A stretch of DNA of 64,000 nt from Candidatus Latescibacterota bacterium (lineage in GTDB: Bacteria; Latescibacterota; UBA2968), in NCBI GenBank assembly GCA_965204745.1, contig OZ242010.1, forward strand, positions 5,088,001-5,152,000, written 5' to 3'. Shown piece after piece: positions 1-64,000 of this stretch (its first letter is position 1; each line of letters begins with the position of its first letter). The notes beneath the pieces are model-generated. The model saw only the letters and a program-made list of their open reading frames with translations, made no database searches and was not told the origin of the DNA. A program made the translations under genes and the position numbers.

Positions 1-386
1 CCTGTGTACTTGTTGGTGTCGTTGCCGATGGGCAGCCAGCCGTCGCCGCTGTTCCAGTATGCGTCGGCGGAGTTGGCAGAGCCGCCGCCGTCGGTGTCAA
101 GGTCGATGTTGGCGGTGAGTTCGTAGCCGGTGCAGGTGGAGGCGCAACCCATGCCCGAAGCGGCGTTGGGAAAGGCGGCGTTGTAGTTCGTGGTATCCGT
201 AGCGGCTACGGTACCATCGCCATTGAGGTCCCAGCGAACGGCGTTGAGTTGAGCGTGGGTGGACACCTCAATGTAGTTGTCGTTGTCCGTATCGTAGTCG
301 GTTTGGGCAAAAGCCGGCCCCGATGCCATCAGCATGCCCAGCACGACCATAGCCAACAAGCGAGTTCTGAAAAGGGCGGTAATCAC
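1..386 (-). CDS. Large secreted protein, N-terminal part (runs off window); signal peptide then DYDTDNDNYIEVST..QLNAVRWDLNGDG domain typical of GLUG/adhesin-like surface proteins
   Basis: Not in ORF track. Manual translation from GTG 386 (RBS GGAGGT at 392-397): MITALFRTRLLAMVVLGMLMASGPAFAQTDYDTDNDNYIEVSTHAQLNAVRWDLNGDG...GYELTANIDLD...GWLPIG; open to window edge. Confidence 0.75.
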   Translation of the reverse strand, partial: MITALFRTRLLAMVVLGMLMASGPAFAQTDYDTDNDNYIEVSTHAQLNAVRWDLNGDGTVAATDTTNYNAAFPNAASGMGCASTCTGYELTANIDLDTDGGGSANSADAYWNSGDGWLPIGNDTNKYT

Positions 387-511
387 CTGAAACCTCCCAA
401 AAAAATATAACGAGTTGTGCAGGCATGGCTTTTGCCTGCGGGTGCCAAATAACGATGATGGAGACAAGCTAAGGTACCACGTCGTTTCTTGTCAAGGGGA
501 ATTGGGCCTAT

Positions 512-577
512 GGACCTACCCCCCTGGCCCCGTTACTCGCTTCGCTTCGTTGTAGGCTACGCCTGTGCCTGCGAGGA
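512..577. repeat. Copy of the GGACCTAYCCCC..GGCCCC / CAGGCACAGGCGTAGCCTACAA repeat family; flanks the decayed IS110 end
   Basis: Reverse complement aligns with 5839-5902 and 17251-17317. Confidence 0.85.
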
Positions 578-677
578 AGATACTCTCTTAAAGGTCAAGG
601 GATTTGCGCGGTGATTCGATAGAATTTTTCGCCCTCAAAATCTTGGTCATGCCGCAACATGCCCCAGATCGAATGGC

Positions 678-705
678 GTAGGGGGCTATAATTATAGCCC
701 CCTAC
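678..705. repeat. GTAG-type REP-like perfect palindrome
   Basis: GTAGGGGGCTATAATTATAGCCCCCTAC, 28 bp, absent from the intact IS110. Confidence 0.9.
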
Positions 706-928
706 TTTCGCATCACCGCAACGATAGCCTGCAAAGGTTTCTTGCCGCGGGCGATGAGTTGGTCATAGAAGGCTTTGACATGGGCTTCGTGCCTGCTGGC
801 CACCCAGGCAGGTATAGAGAGGGCATGGCGGAGATACTTATTCCCGGTTTTCGAGTGGTTGCGGCTCTGTTCGCAGATGATCGCCTGCTTGAGTTGGTCA
901 ATCCGTCTGGTCAGGGCTTGCTGTTGGC

Positions 929-956
929 GCAGGGGTGAATAATTATTCGCCCCTAC
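929..956. repeat. GTAG-type REP-like palindrome
   Basis: GCAGGGGTGAATAATTATTCGCCCCTAC, 28 bp, absent from the intact IS110. Confidence 0.9.
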
Positions 957-1093
957 TCGCTCGGCGCTTGCCAAGGCATAAACGGCATGCGCTCGGCATC
1001 ATCGAGGATCAACAACGCATCCTTCGCATTTTAGAACAGCAACGAGACATTGCCCCCCTCCTCATCGGGATCGCGGATCACCGAGAAATGCAC

Positions 1094-1387
1094 TCACGCA
1101 GCCGACTTGCCCGACTGCCGCACCTTTTTCAGCGCGGACATCCACGTCAACTCATAGACCACCAGCGCGCCGCGCCAGACATCCACGTTTTCAAGCCCGC
1201 TTTGCACCAATCGCGCAGCCTGTTCAATGGTCGCTTCTGCGGCCTTGACCTCGGGCTGATCGGCCACGACTTTCATGGGAATGGGGCCATAAGCAGCGCG
1301 CACGCGATTGATCACCTCGCTGACTTCCCGACAAAATTGGGTGATGGACCGGGAACCAATAGCCGACATGGGAACGATGCGTCTCAT
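1094..1387 (-). CDS. Hypothetical protein (97 aa)
   Basis: ORF with AGGAGAGG RBS before ATG 1387; no recognised motif. Confidence 0.6.
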   Translation of the reverse strand: MRRIVPMSAIGSRSITQFCREVSEVINRVRAAYGPIPMKVVADQPEVKAAEATIEQAARLVQSGLENVDVWRGALVVYELTWMSALKKVRQSGKSAA

Positions 1388-1550
1388 GGGAACCTCTCCT
1401 TTTGAATGACGAGAAATGCAACCGTTATCTTCCATTTTCCAACCGCCATAATATAGTGAACATTTGTGTATCCGTCAAGGCTAAAAACGCGCCAAAAAAA
1501 ACTTTCCCTCAATCCCCTGCGATATTATCTTCTCCCTCAAAAAAGGACTA

Positions 1551-1697
1551 CACGCTCAAGAATGCGTTGAATTTGCCCGCGCTGTCGCCGAAGGCAAGCC
1601 CTCGCCCGTGCCGGCCGAACAATCGCTACAAGTCATGGCGATTCTCGACGGCATTTATCGCAGCCAAGAAATCGGCGGCGAAGTCAAAATCGCATAG
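1551..1697 (+). pseudogene. C-terminal remnant of Gfo/Idh/MocA oxidoreductase
   Basis: HAQECVEFARAVAEGKPSPVPAEQSLQVMAILDGIYRSQEIGGEVKIA*, a typical family C-terminus; no start; 9 bp before next gene. Confidence 0.7.
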
Positions 1698-1706
1698 GGA
1701 AACGCC

Positions 1707-2327
1707 GTGATCTTTTTATCGACCATCGTCGGCCCGCTCGACGTCAACTGCTATCTCCTCGCGTGCGAAGAAACGCGCAAGGGTATCGTCGTCGATCCCG
1801 GCGACGATATCGACGCCATCCTGCAACTCATCGCAAATAACGATCTCGACATCGTGGAAATCGTCGCCACGCACGGGCATTTTGACCACATTGGCCGCGT
1901 CGCATCGCTCAAAAAAAAATCGGGCGCGCCATTCGCCATCCACAAAGCCGACCTGTTCATGATCGAGGGGCTTGCAGACATCGCGGCATTTCTCGGCTTT
2001 CAAACCGATCCGCCGCCCGCTGTCGAGCGTTTCATCGACGAAGGCGATACCATTGCCTTTGGTCGCGAAACCCTGAACGTCCTCCATGTCCCTGGCCACG
2101 CGCCCGGCAATATCGCGCTCACCTGGCCGGGTCACGCCATTATCGGCGACACGGTTTTCGCAGGCTCCATTGGCAGAACCGACCTCGAAGGCGCGGACTT
2201 ACAAACCCTGATGCACTCGATTCGCACCAAAATCCTCACCCTGCCCGGCGATACCATTCTCCATCCCGGGCATGGGCCAACCACAACGGTTGATCGCGAA
2301 AAACGCATCAATCCATTTCTGGCGTGA
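1707..2327 (+). CDS. MBL-fold metallo-hydrolase (glyoxalase II-like)
   Basis: THGHFDH, PGHAPG, GDTVF..SIGRTD, PGHG motifs. Confidence 0.93.
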   Translation: MIFLSTIVGPLDVNCYLLACEETRKGIVVDPGDDIDAILQLIANNDLDIVEIVATHGHFDHIGRVASLKKKSGAPFAIHKADLFMIEGLADIAAFLGFQTDPPPAVERFIDEGDTIAFGRETLNVLHVPGHAPGNIALTWPGHAIIGDTVFAGSIGRTDLEGADLQTLMHSIRTKILTLPGDTILHPGHGPTTTVDREKRINPFLA

Positions 2328-5542: not shown

Positions 5543-5905
5543 GGTTCTGTTGACATTTACGAGCAATGTAACTGGAATTGAGCGGTTTATCGGGAAAATC
5601 AAGCCCTATCGGGACCTACCCCCCTGGCCCCCCTTCCTACAAGGAAGGGGGGAATGGCGAGCGGTTTTGCGAGGGGATAGGATGAGGGATTTTTAATCGC
5701 TTTATGCCCTCGGTCAATGCCATCAGAGCAACCCTTGATAGAAGCCATCAAGGGAGCTTTACTCCCCTTTCCTCGTAGGAAAGGGGCCGGGGGATAGGTC
5801 CCCTCTCGCAATGCCATCAAAGAAACTTTACTCCCCTTTCCTCGTAGGCACAGGCGTAGCCTACAATGAGCGAAGCGAATAACGGGGCCGGGGGATAGGT
5901 CCCCT
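5543..5905. mobile_element. One-ended inverted copy of the MITE at 16908-17432
   Basis: Begins TA-GGTTCTGTTGACATTT; body aligns in reverse with about 17020-17432. Confidence 0.8.
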
Positions 5906-5929
5906 CGGTCTTCGCAGAAAGGAGTTCGC

Positions 5930-16907: not shown

Positions 16908-17432
16908 GGTTGTGTTGACATTTCATTTTTTGACGTTATGCACAGAGTAGCAAATGTGTTGCTTGCTCATTTAAGGCGTTTGGTCCTTTGATGGCTTATA
17001 TCTCTGATTGCTCTGATGGCGTTGCGCGAGGGGACCTATCCCCCGGCCCCTTTCCTACGAGGAAAGGGGAGTAAAGCTCCTTTGATGGCTTCCAGCTCTG
17101 GTTGCTCTGATGGCATTGACCGAGGGCATAAAGCGATTAAAAATCCCTCTCACCATCCCCTCGTAAAACCTATCCGCGTTCCCCCCTTCTTCGCAGGAAG
17201 GGGGGTTAGGGGGGTAGGTCCCCCTCGCAAAACCGCTCACAGTTCCCCCTTCCTCACAGGCACAGGCGTAGCCTACAACGAAGCGCAGCGAGTAACGGGG
17301 GTTAGGGGGTTAGGTCCCGATAAGGAGCGACTATTCTAGGTTCTCAAACCGAGAGCATATTCTGCGATAGGGCTTGATTTTTTCGATAAGCCGCCCCATT
17401 CAGTTGCATGGCTCGCAAATGTCAACACAACC
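16908..17432. mobile_element. MITE, 525 bp, 16-bp perfect TIRs, TA on both flanks
   Basis: GGTTGTGTTGACATTT (16908-16923) / AAATGTCAACACAACC (17417-17432); TA at 16906-07 and 17433-34; no credible ORF. Confidence 0.88.
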
Positions 17433-56744: not shown

Positions 56745-57055
56745 TATGGGCTACCCAATGAAAAAAATGGTCGCTTTGCGTCCATCCACCGGCTGATCGC
56801 GACCTTTTGCCGGGTGAAAAACGAAAGCCCATCGATCAATGGCTTAACGGTTTCGGACACGGCGATCTCCTGTTGGGGTGGCACTTACTCGGCGCCGTGT
56901 TGCCGAAGCTTGGGGGCTTCTCCGGGTACGGGCGAGTTGTCAAATGCCCCGCGTTGAATTACGGCTCCTTTGCTACCCAAGGCGTCTATGGTGGCTTTTT
57001 GCGCGGCTTTGGCTTGGGCAGTGGCGGAGCGGTCTCCCCTCTCCCTTCTTACCTC

Positions 57056-62591: not shown

Positions 62592-62715
62592 GATGGGATT
62601 TTAGCCACGAGCGGGGTACAACTGGCGACAGCCAGTTCAAAGGCACAAAAGGCACAAAAGGGGTACAACTGGCGATAGCCAGTTCAAAGGCACAATCGGT
62701 GAGACGCAAGACGGG
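62589..62715. repeat. Tandem hairpin cassettes plus GNRAGAN heptamers flanking the IS110 right end
   Basis: Two GGGGTACAACTGGCGAYAGCCAGTTCAAAGGCAC units; GTGAGAC GCAAGAC GGG then core AG. Confidence 0.85.
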
Positions 62716-62733
62716 AGATACTCTCTTAAAAGG

Positions 62734-63741
62734 TCAAGGGGTTTTCGGGGTGATTCGATAGAATTTTTCGCCCTCAAAATCTTGGTCATGGCGCAACATG
62801 CCCCAGATCGAATGGAGCAACTTTCGCATCACCGCAACGATAGCCTGCAAAGGTTTCTTGCCGCGGGCGATGAGTTGGTCATAGAAGGCTTTGACATGGC
62901 CTTCGTGTCTGATGGCCACCCAGGCAGGCATATAGAGGGCATGGCGGAGGTACTTATTCCCGGTTTTCGAGATGCGTCTTTGTGGATTGGCGGTTCCGGA
63001 TTGTTTGGGTTTGGGATCCAGGCCTGCATGTGCGACCCACTGGGGCGGTTGCATCTCCTCTGGCAAAAGGGTCAACTCGGCCAAGAGCCGCAAGGCACTC
63101 GTTTGCGCGATGCCAGGCGTCGAGCAGAGGCGTTGGTAGGCACGCTTGAGGGGCTCATCGTGCAAAACGAGATCGAGGGCTTGGCTTTCCAAGTATGCAA
63201 TCCGGCGTTTGAAGTGTCGAATATTCACCTGAATATCGCGTGCGATGAGACGTGTGCTGCGGATGTGGTAGCTCTGCGCGTGGTTGCGGCTCTGTTCGCG
63301 GATGATCTCCTGCTTGAGTTGGTCAATGCGTCTGGTGAGGGCTTGCAGTTGAAGCCGTTGCTCGCTCGGCGCTTGCCAAGGCACAAAAGGCATGCGCTCG
63401 GCATAGTCGAGGATCAACAACGCATCCTTCGCATCCGTCTTCGCCCGTTGCATGCAGGCTTGGGCGTACTTGCTCATCGCTTTGGGATTGACGACCATGA
63501 CCTTTGTGTGGCGATGCCGATGCAAGGCCAAGGCCACCCCCAAACTGTAAAGCCCGGTCGCTTCGAGGCACACAGAGACCATGTGCCCGCCCTTCGTGAG
63601 CCACTTCAGCAACCGCTTATGCGCTTGGGGATCATTGGCAAAGGTCGCTTGCATGACAGCTTGTCCGGGTCTGGACAGGGCAACGGACAACGTGCGGGCA
63701 CTGACATCAATGCCGGCAAAAGCGGGGTGAGATTTCGACAT
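62734..63741 (-). CDS. IS110 family recombinase/transposase
   Basis: GIDVS, CLEATG.Y, KTDAKDA (DEDD), PGI, AGL.P...QSG (catalytic Ser), G.K.LR..LY, A.MRKL; RBS AGGAGG. Confidence 0.97.
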   Translation of the reverse strand: MSKSHPAFAGIDVSARTLSVALSRPGQAVMQATFANDPQAHKRLLKWLTKGGHMVSVCLEATGLYSLGVALALHRHRHTKVMVVNPKAMSKYAQACMQRAKTDAKDALLILDYAERMPFVPWQAPSEQRLQLQALTRRIDQLKQEIIREQSRNHAQSYHIRSTRLIARDIQVNIRHFKRRIAYLESQALDLVLHDEPLKRAYQRLCSTPGIAQTSALRLLAELTLLPEEMQPPQWVAHAGLDPKPKQSGTANPQRRISKTGNKYLRHALYMPAWVAIRHEGHVKAFYDQLIARGKKPLQAIVAVMRKLLHSIWGMLRHDQDFEGEKFYRITPKTP

Positions 63742-63784
63742 GGGGGCCTCCTGTGATGAGGGGGTTGTAAGGGATCTGGTGCGC

Positions 63785-63992
63785 GCTCGGGGTCCCGACC
63801 ATTGACGCCAAGTCTACCGGTCTTGTATATGCAGCCTCAAGGGGCTTAGATACTCTTCGGCATAGACCCGGCGGTCGGGGGGCCTATCTTACCTACAAGG
63901 TCATCGCCTTCAAGAGGGGCCGGCCTTCCCCGAGCCGGGCATCAAGATGGCTTATCTCGATACGAGGGCGCAACTCCTAATTAACCCTTACT
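63785..63992 (-). ncRNA. Predicted IS110 bridge RNA
   Basis: Nested stems enclosing two internal loops; AGAGUAUCU + AUACAAG (donor guides) and CCGGCCCCU + GUAGGUAAG (target guides); ends approximate. Confidence 0.8.
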
Positions 63993-64000
63993 TCCAAGAT

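Follow-up and report, generated by a model that had tools for sequence, protein, structure and literature searches.

The 64,000-nt window analysed here, taken from contig OZ242010.1 of a Candidatus Latescibacterota genome, very probably contains two insertion sequences (IS) that are guided by bridge RNAs and belong to the same IS621-like family of the IS110 group: an intact copy at the right edge and a truncated remnant near the left edge. According to this explanation, a full element of ~1.29 kb would consist of a DEDD/Ser recombinase gene and a bridge RNA encoded in a 262-nt left end with two internal loops. The donor loop (AGAGUAU-CU and AUACA-AG) would match the element's own joined ends, while the two guides of the target loop would choose the insertion site around a CT core. 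The main lineage, including the intact window copy, appears to be programmed for CCCCT-CT-T[A/G]CCT in heptamer arrays and to have expanded in a recent burst (30 identical copies). In an older and wholly decayed lineage, the target loop would have been rewritten to GTTCCCC-CT and CAGGA-AG, resulting in insertion into another repeat, referred to as rep2, at TTCCCC-CT-TCCT. The remnant (window 580–1029) would then represent the right-hand junction of a rep2 insertion, of which a later deletion took the left part, the bridge RNA, and the left half of rep2. The observed evidence comprises the anatomy of the elements, their junctions, the empty sites, and the match between guides and flanks across variants and genomes.

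Element anatomy and predicted bridge RNA

The 335-aa open reading frame (ORF) of the intact copy matches PF01548 (E-value 1.2e-24, profile positions 1–147 of 155), which corresponds to the N-terminal DEDD RuvC-like domain, and PF02371 (4.8e-20), the C-terminal Tnp domain, in which an SK-G motif aligns with that of ISCro4. The conserved serine of this motif is presumably the catalytic one. In a phmmer search of a structure database, the recombinase matches ISCro4 and IS621 (7.6e-40 and 5.8e-36, respectively). The non-coding ends are 262 nt (left) and 16 nt (right) long and carry no long terminal inverted repeats. As a long non-coding left end combined with a short right end is the criterion given for the IS110 group in PMC11208160, the element is assigned to this group. 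CT precedes 62 of the 63 left ends found in the genome; at right ends CT formed part of the search pattern and does not provide an independent count.

The left end, both alone and in an alignment of 10 variants, is predicted to fold into a hairpin at its 5′ side and, after it, two internal loops enclosed by stems, and the same fold is obtained after adding copies from two other genomes. The first loop (target) has ..GGCCGG-CCCCT-CT-TG.. on its 5′ side and ..GT-AGGTA-AG-ATAGG.. on its 3′ side. The second loop (donor) contains AGAGTAT-CT, which equals the right terminus followed by the core, and ATACA-AG, which is complementary to the core and the adjoining left terminus TGTAT. The arrangement is that described for IS621 in PMC11208160, where the left target guide (LTG) has the top-strand sequence of the left target, the right target guide (RTG) complements the right target, and the core takes part in each pairing. 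Among the 10 distinct left ends, 9 of the 12 guide columns are variable versus 42 of the 193 remaining ones (Fisher p 2.4e-4, an approximate value, as the sequences are related). By analogy with IS621, the RNA would be made and would guide recombination in the same manner.

Guides and flanks across the genome

Profile searches of the whole genome report 57 matches to PF01548 and 56 to PF02371. Pattern searches yield 63 left and 56 right ends, which make up 67 elements or fragments, including 52 complete ones. The main guide set (LTG CCCCT-CT, RTG AGGTA-AG) is present in 46 copies, which are located in heptamer arrays. The target logo built from the 45 complete main-guide copies reads TCTCCCCT-CT-T[A 25 / G 18]CCTCT, which is the unit junction of the heptamer arrays (TCTNNCC)n. 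The genome contains 343 such arrays of at least 4 units, counting both strands, and the unoccupied words CCCCTCTT[A/G]CCT occur 5 + 65 times.

Regarding the left guide, 58 elements have both a readable loop and a left flank, and the 5 nt at the core agree in 5/5 positions in 47 of them, followed by 4/5 in 5, 3/5 in 5, and 1/5 in a single element. For the right guide (n = 52), 29 elements show 5/5, 19 show 4/5, and 2 each show 3/5 and 2/5. Nearly all of the 4/5 cases (17 of 19) represent the same A-to-G change at position +2 (TGCCT versus the predicted TACCT), where G opposite the guide U is interpreted as a G.U wobble pair. Flanks also change together with the guides: the 4 copies of the variant CGCCT-CT / AAGTA-AG are flanked by TCGCCT-CT (3/4) and CT-TACTT (3/4), and the single copy of the variant TCCCT-CT / AGGTG-AG has TTCCCT-CT and CT-CACCT (1/1). 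In one locus (genome 1121591–1124180), two full IS copies stand in tandem with only TACCT-CT between them, one inserted one heptamer unit from the other.

The original prediction, which placed both window insertions in repeats at a CT core and proposed to collect all genomic copies into a target logo, is well supported by these data. Both junctions can be read directly, the full collection shows strong repeat targeting, and the right flank starts inside heptamer-type sequence in all 52 complete elements, so that the copies do not lie mostly in unique sequence. The heptamers next to the intact copy are also found as described (CT-CCCGTCTTGCGTCTCACC at window 62717–62697, minus strand). The heptamer unit CTTACCT, in turn, is present at 57048–57054 and not at 57047–57053, as was initially reported.

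Similar agreement is observed in other genomes. The seven copies of genome G024 have the same junctions as record OY282377.1 and are counted once. Their LTG is TCC[T/C]C-CT and their RTG is AGAAA-AG (6 copies) or GGAAA-AG (1 copy); left matches are partial, and the right flank is CT-TTTCT in 6 of 7, inside a C-run/G-run repeat. In OZ251458.1, 18 copies with LTG CTCGCCT-CT and RTG AGGG-AG are located in heptamer arrays, having ..CCT-CT as the left flank in 18/18 and CT-CCC as the right flank in 16/18 (CT-CCCGT in 14). The flank thus follows the guide in three genomes, and heptamer arrays are the targets in two of the three. A looser target-loop pattern detects the family in only 1 of 20 other genomes of the genus (G024), although this pattern also misses the G028-type variant.

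The remnant and its junction with rep2

When read on the minus strand, window 600–512 has the form ...CCTTGACCTTTAAGAGAGTAT-CT-TCCTCGCAGGCACAGGCGTAGCCTACAACGAAGCGAAGCGAGTAACGGGGCCAGGGGGGTAGGTCC, i.e., a complete IS110-type right terminus, then the core, then the repeat. The right end ...AGAGAGTAT-CT meets the right half of rep2 exactly at the CT core: the IS ends with window 580, the core occupies 579–578, and rep2 covers 577–512. The remnant retains the right end and portions of the 3′ half of the transposase gene, including a PF02371 match at window 765–863 in the profile search. It has no left end, no bridge RNA, and no ~580 nt of the 5′ part, and contains an internal deletion of ~300 nt. 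Compared to the intact copy, it forms two blastn blocks with 87.6% and 81.5% identity. Once two inserts and the internal deletion are set aside, its pieces are 93–97% identical to other copies. These inserts are palindromic, ~28 nt long, and located at window ~677–705 and ~930–956 (GTAGGGGGCTATAATTATAGCCCCCTAC and a GAATAATTATTC variant); their pattern has only 5 matches in the genome, at least one other of which lies inside another IS fragment.

IS homology of the remnant ends exactly at window 1029. The adjoining segment 1030–1540 is native: it stands next to the genes of window 1551–2320 in 12 of 12 same-genus genomes. The left part of the IS, together with the bridge RNA and the left half of rep2, was thus lost by deletion, and only the right junction of the remnant survives.

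With up to 3 mismatches allowed, the 5.48-Mb genome contains 237 copies of the rep2 body (AGGCACAGGCGTAGCCTAC), preceded by TTCCCCCTTCCT in 38 cases, CCCCCTTCCT in 74, and CCCCTTTCCT in 83. The copy at 17243–17317 reads TTCCCC-CT-TCCTCACAGGCACAGGCGTAGCC (also written TTCCCC-CT-TCCTCACAGG). Six paralogous loci, which have ~170–200 nt of flank in common with the remnant, read ...[T/C]CCC-CT-TCCTCGCAGG without interruption; this common flank is the upstream region of a multi-copy gene. Empty rep2 sites hold a single CT, and the homology of the remnant's flank to other rep2 copies stops at window 578–579. As for a possible REP-type hairpin in rep2, the short form at 17183–17228 folds well (z-score −2.78) and the copy at 5828–5908 has a z-score of −1.62, while the long form at 17240–17318 folds no better than shuffled sequence (0.49).

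These data confirm the initial view of the remnant as a decayed IS110 copy that joins a repeat at a CT core, according to both the PF02371 match and the base-exact junction. The claim that CCCC-CT-TCCTC is shared by two repeat copies holds for 17243–17317; the copy at 5833–5902, however, reads CCCC-TT-TCCTCGT. Similarly, the bridge RNA of the intact copy, which was thought to predict the remnant's repeat family, predicts the heptamer family and not rep2.

Sister copies with rep2-type guides

Four decayed left ends (921772, 1263487, 1433018, and 2089466) are preceded by ...TTCCCC-CT, and their left context, CCCTCGCAAAACC.CTC.C..TTCCCC, is the same as in uninterrupted rep2 copies. The flank of the remnant, CT-TCCTCG, provides the right-hand counterpart of these left junctions. 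Three copies keep the target loop, having left guides GTTCCCC-CT, GTCCCCCCC-CT, or GCCCCC-CT and right guides CAGGA-AG or TAGGA-AG. The left guide matches in 5/5, 4/5, and 4/5 positions. The variant GTTCCCC-CT / CAGGA-AG has the left flank AGTTCCCC-CT, and in copy 1263487 the left guide agrees with its own flank in 7/7 positions. The gene is broken in every copy with rep2-type guides, and their type of target loop is found in 0 of 20 other genomes of the genus. Right ends are missing from all four rep2-abutting copies, as is the left end from the remnant, so the two halves of the picture come from different copies.

The guides of the main lineage fit rep2 poorly (3/5 on the left and 2/5 on the right), and 0 of 46 main-guide copies are inserted there, although 38 rep2 bodies carry TTCCCCCTTCCT. 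Among the 56 right ends, the window remnant is the only one that abuts rep2. Since the main guides misfit rep2 and the copies that abut it carry fitting guides, the data point to guide reprogramming in a sister lineage, or to the RNA of that lineage acting in trans, rather than to relaxed specificity. The RNA that directed the remnant itself would have been programmed for rep2, whether encoded by its own lost left end or supplied in trans by a sister copy.

Relaxed targeting across the two repeat families was named as a possibility in the original prediction, and would mean that a main-type RNA (CCCCT-CT / AGGTA-AG) tolerated rep2, both sites being C-rich on the left and T/C-rich on the right. 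The two sites do have CCC-...-CT-T in common, and some mismatch is tolerated by main copies, 4 of 46 having TACCT-CT as the left flank and 2 having CT-CCCGT as the right one. According to the preprint 10.64898/2026.08.31.748434, half-site matches are also sufficient for a part of IS621 insertions, both in vitro and in data that were re-analysed. However, given the poor fit of the main guides, their absence from rep2, and the presence in the same genome of rep2-fitting guides on left ends that abut this repeat, relaxed specificity appears very improbable and this part of the prediction is not retained.

Another option is that the junction is secondary, originating from IS–IS recombination or from the truncating deletion, with no insertion at this particular rep2 copy. 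The locus is indeed rearranged: the IS is truncated at 1029 and the neighbouring gene is ~1 kb shorter than in genome G001. Chimeric flanks also occur elsewhere, e.g., a heptamer flank on the left and rep2 on the right around TGTATCT at genome 234964. The junction, however, is base-exact, comprising a complete terminus, one CT, and rep2 from the very base at which uninterrupted copies continue, and IS–IS recombination would still require a copy inserted in rep2 at the same core. Such an origin is therefore considered highly unlikely. Chance juxtaposition of an IS fragment and a repeat can practically be dismissed: both IS and rep2 are abundant in the genome, but 5 of 5 junctions (four left ends and the right end of the remnant) share one and the same CT of rep2, in agreement with the guide sequences.

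Several observations weigh against the proposed explanation, i.e., an IS621-like family in which the remnant belongs to rep2-reprogrammed insertions. With respect to the RNA, stem covariation is thin (a two-sided change in 1 of 46 predicted pairs, and at least one non-canonical cell in 12 pairs), and no Rfam family matches the left end at E-values up to 1; at gathering thresholds, Rfam reports only tRNA over the window. The bridge RNA is accordingly treated as a prediction, whose structure is derived from energy calculations and analogy. With respect to target matches, two of the rep2-type copies have a left guide that agrees in only 4/5 positions (CCCCC versus TCCCC). The rep2-type right guide predicts CT-TCCTG, while both rep2 and the remnant flank have CT-TCCTC, which gives 4/5 with a mismatch at +5 (G predicted, C found). 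Decayed copy 845538 matches its flank in only 1/5 positions. In addition, the right flank of the intact copy, CT-CCCGTCTTGCGTCTCACC (CT-CCCGT), matches its own right guide in 2/5 positions, and one further main copy (1928660) has the same CT-CCCGT flank and the same 2/5 match. As for the remnant, it has no left end, so its own guides are unreadable. When four of its surviving segments are compared with all copies, they are no closer to the rep2-type copy 1263487 (95.4%) than to main copies (96–97%, over 152 nt). Its right-end terminus is of an older type (GCAA..CCTTTAAG), which is also present in non-rep2 lineages. Because the bridge RNA is lost and the sequence comparison is indecisive, the remnant is linked to the sister copies by its insertion site.

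The intact copy

The final 3 nt of the left end of the intact copy, the left core, and the left flank (..GTCTCCCCT-CT) fall beyond the window end. Apart from 5 nt deleted just downstream of the predicted bridge RNA, the copy equals a set of 30 identical copies of 1,291 bp. On the left, its flank GTCTCCCCT-CT agrees with its own guide, and three readings of the 2/5 match on the right are given here side by side, with no preference among them. First, one heptamer unit may have been lost after insertion, changing CT-TACCTCT-CCCG.. into CT-CCCG..; flanks of exactly this type are present at other copies. Second, the copy may have been inserted with a half match, as described for IS621 in the above-mentioned preprint. 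Third, it may have been guided in trans by a loop CCCCT-CT / ACGGG-AG, which fits CCCCT-CT-CCCGT exactly; bridge RNA is reported to work in trans for IS621 (PMC11208160).

A deletion derivative of ~190 bp at genome 2972661–2972850 has no transposase gene and keeps both termini and the whole target loop, with the right guide ACGGG-AG. Its loop fits the flanks of the intact copy better than the intact copy's own loop. The same right guide, combined with a different left guide, is also found in decayed copy 845538.

Contigs from 4 public runs (4 studies) were compared with the intact copy; such contigs break at repeats. Among the contigs listed for the 4 runs, none spans an empty or occupied junction with at least 31 letters on each side. 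Contigs of all four runs carry 5 letters that are absent from the window copy, as expected if many copies collapse. Among the public runs listed as containing the sequence, none is an RNA run. In run X1, the summed contig word depth over the IS body (L021 300–2900) is tens of times that of unique flanks, which fits a high-copy element, though this depth is not a copy number.

A repeat of modular build (..CCTTTGAACTGGCTATCGCCAGTTGTACCCC, TTTTGTGCC units, GCTCGTGGCTAAA..) is found at window 62600–62700 and 2400–2470; its blastn matches in the genome number well over 100. It often ends with ..CCATCT followed by heptamer arrays, so that the targets of the IS belong to a repeat architecture of wider extent.

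A solo terminus motif outside IS copies

The motif CTTGTATCT, which consists of the core and the 7 nt that begin the left end, is found 230 times in the genome versus ~27 occurrences expected from base composition. Among these, 56 are IS left ends and 174 lie outside IS copies, one such locale being at genome 5152255, just past the window end and to the left of the intact copy. In the majority of solo motifs (117 of 174), a hairpin repeat, T[C/T]GGGCGAGCAC.GGGGCATCGCCCCTAC, follows immediately on the 3′ side, while heptamers follow in 16. A further 16 of the 174 read TTCCCC-CT-TGTAT-CT-TCCTCGT, which is an exact 7-bp insertion at the rep2 core. As 11 of these 16 have one left context in common, some of them arose by copying of an already marked repeat.

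A comparable solo right terminus is not found: AGAGTATCT occurs 116 times, and only ~6 occurrences are neither right ends nor donor guides. For this reason, the possibility that the TGTATCTT-prefixed hairpin is a non-autonomous element with both IS ends was rejected. Guided insertion at the 5′ junction of the prefixed hairpin is not supported either. In G024, where 29 loci of the 98 hits were examined, a diverse set of left flanks is observed, and CCCCT is found in only 10 of 66 cases in the present genome; this diversity argues against guided insertion of that repeat. Within the genus, the prefixed hairpin is counted 109 times in the present genome (G000), 139 times in G024, and 23 times in G028, while the other 18 genomes have 0–1. 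The hairpin itself is present in most of these 18 genomes (e.g., 73 hits in G008). The IS clade, in turn, is found in G024 and G028 and not found in G008, G006, and G025; the other 15 genomes of the genus were screened for it by the loop pattern only. Since these genomes are kin, the association of the prefixed hairpin with the IS clade may reflect descent.

As GTATCT is present at both the left and the right end, recombination between these two stretches could have left the 7-bp unit behind as a scar. A broader but rather doubtful idea is that guide RNAs are shared in trans as a pool and that the recombinase reshapes other repeats, with the solo motif being a scar or half-site. If true, the ~190-bp element at 2972661 would be a natural guide-only satellite that redirects autonomous copies, excision would not always be scarless, and the recombinase would have moulded the repeat landscape of the genome. 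The CT-TGTATCT motif could bear on how such elements exit a site.

Neighbouring genes and feature coordinates

Near the truncated IS, window 1540–1700 contains just the 3′ end of an oxidoreductase-like gene. Genome G001 has ~970 bp extra between its matches to window 1531 and 1550, so that the present genome has a deletion beside the truncated IS. On the other side, window 1–467 (minus strand) holds the 5′ part of a secreted-protein gene with a signal-peptide-like start at ~352 and no Pfam match. This gene family is multi-copy, with >10 paralogous loci of 78–91% DNA identity that have the rep2-bearing upstream region in common.

Table 1. Window coordinates of the two elements, their flanking repeats, and unoccupied target sites.
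Feature	Position	Strand	Evidence
rep2 right half (TCCTCGCAGGCACAGGCGTAGCCTAC...GGGGGGTAGGTCC), directly after core	512..577	-	237 bodies in genome; uninterrupted paralogous copies
CT core dinucleotide, remnant right junction	578..579	-	homology to rep2 copies ends here
Truncated IS110-group element	580..1029	-	PF02371, blastn, segment comparison
Native single-copy DNA joined to truncated IS	1030..1540	.	IS homology stops at 1029; neighbourhood conserved in genus
rep2 copy of subclass CCCC-TT-TCCTCGT, without CT at site	5833..5902	+	83 bodies have CCCCTTTCCT
Unoccupied perfect site of rep2-targeting guides, TTCCCC-CT-TCCT, in rep2 copy 17243–17317	17243..17254	+	sequence read
Unoccupied near-cognate site of main guides, CCCTT-CT-TACCT, 1 mismatch, short heptamer array	57043..57054	+	sequence read
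Heptamer units CCCG-TCTTGCG-TCTCACC flanking intact copy right end	62697..62715	-	sequence read
CT core, intact copy right junction	62716..62717	-	sequence read
Intact IS, 1,286 bp	62718..64000 (to position equivalent to window 64003)	-	blastn, end patterns
Transposase/recombinase ORF, 335 aa	62734..63741	-	PF01548 + PF02371
Right donor guide ATACA-AG (complement of CT-TGTAT, core + left-end start)	63822..63828	-	predicted bridge RNA
Left donor guide AGAGTAT-CT, identical to right-end terminus + core	63848..63856	-	predicted bridge RNA
Right target guide AGGTA-AG (complement of CT-TACCT), target-loop 3′ side	63888..63894	-	predicted bridge RNA
Left target guide CCCCT-CT, target-loop 5′ side	63913..63919	-	predicted bridge RNA

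Comparison with known systems

For IS110 elements, the existence of bridge RNAs, the CT core, the targeting of repeats, and the natural covariation of guides and targets were established in 2024. The guide layout, the CT core, and the targeting of repetitive extragenic palindromic (REP) sequences by IS621 were described by Durrant et al. 2024 (PMC11208160). Since all components were already established, the core finding is a confirmation of the bridge-RNA model and not an extension. The system represents a natural IS621-like bridge recombinase family that is unusually clear but otherwise ordinary, and its mechanism is known and not new. In the papers listed by a search of the IS110 and bridge-RNA literature, the terms "heptamer," "excision footprint," and "Latescibacter" were not found, and this clade may already be covered by Supplementary Data 2 of PMC11208160, where the target motifs are given for each guide pair.

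The family is of interest in that several guide variants of a single element coexist in one complete genome and each variant occupies the target class that matches it, with one lineage dead and another in full expansion (30 identical copies). The dominant target, a tandem array of heptamers, offers many phased sites per locus. Possible uses include a test bed for the origin of new target specificities, as well as the study of the natural pairing extent of the right guide and of the sharing of guide RNAs in trans.

The system can be compared with IS621 of E. coli (structures 8wt6 and others). Both have the two Pfam domains (phmmer 5.8e-36), and IS621 is likewise described as having a long left end, an RNA encoded in this end with a target and a donor loop, a CT core in all four guide pairings, and insertion into genomic repeats. 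One target variant is reported to be tolerated in IS621 (natural ATCAGGCCTAC versus encoded ATCGGGCCTAC), comparable to T[A/G]CCT here. In contrast to IS621, the target is a heptamer tandem array or rep2 and not E. coli REP, and the right guide appears to pair over the core plus 4–5 nt, compared to the core plus 2 described for IS621. Several guide variants also coexist in one genome here, and the present family is known from its sequence.

According to the structure database, the best match of the recombinase is ISCro4 (PDB 9t56), with an E-value of 7.6e-40 over residues 7–326 and aligned GIDVS, EAT, KTDA-DA, and SK-G motifs; this comparison covers the transposase alignment and not the RNA or targets. 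ISPpu9 and ISPpu10 of Pseudomonas putida are described as IS110-family elements with all copies in one repeated intergenic sequence (REP), which resembles the situation here in another host and another repeat. Finally, the IS1111 group is described as having the same recombinase family and being RNA-guided and repeat-targeting. It differs in that the right end is the long one and carries the bridge RNA, and in that its subterminal inverted repeats are long, whereas the long end of the present element is the left one (262 versus 16 nt).

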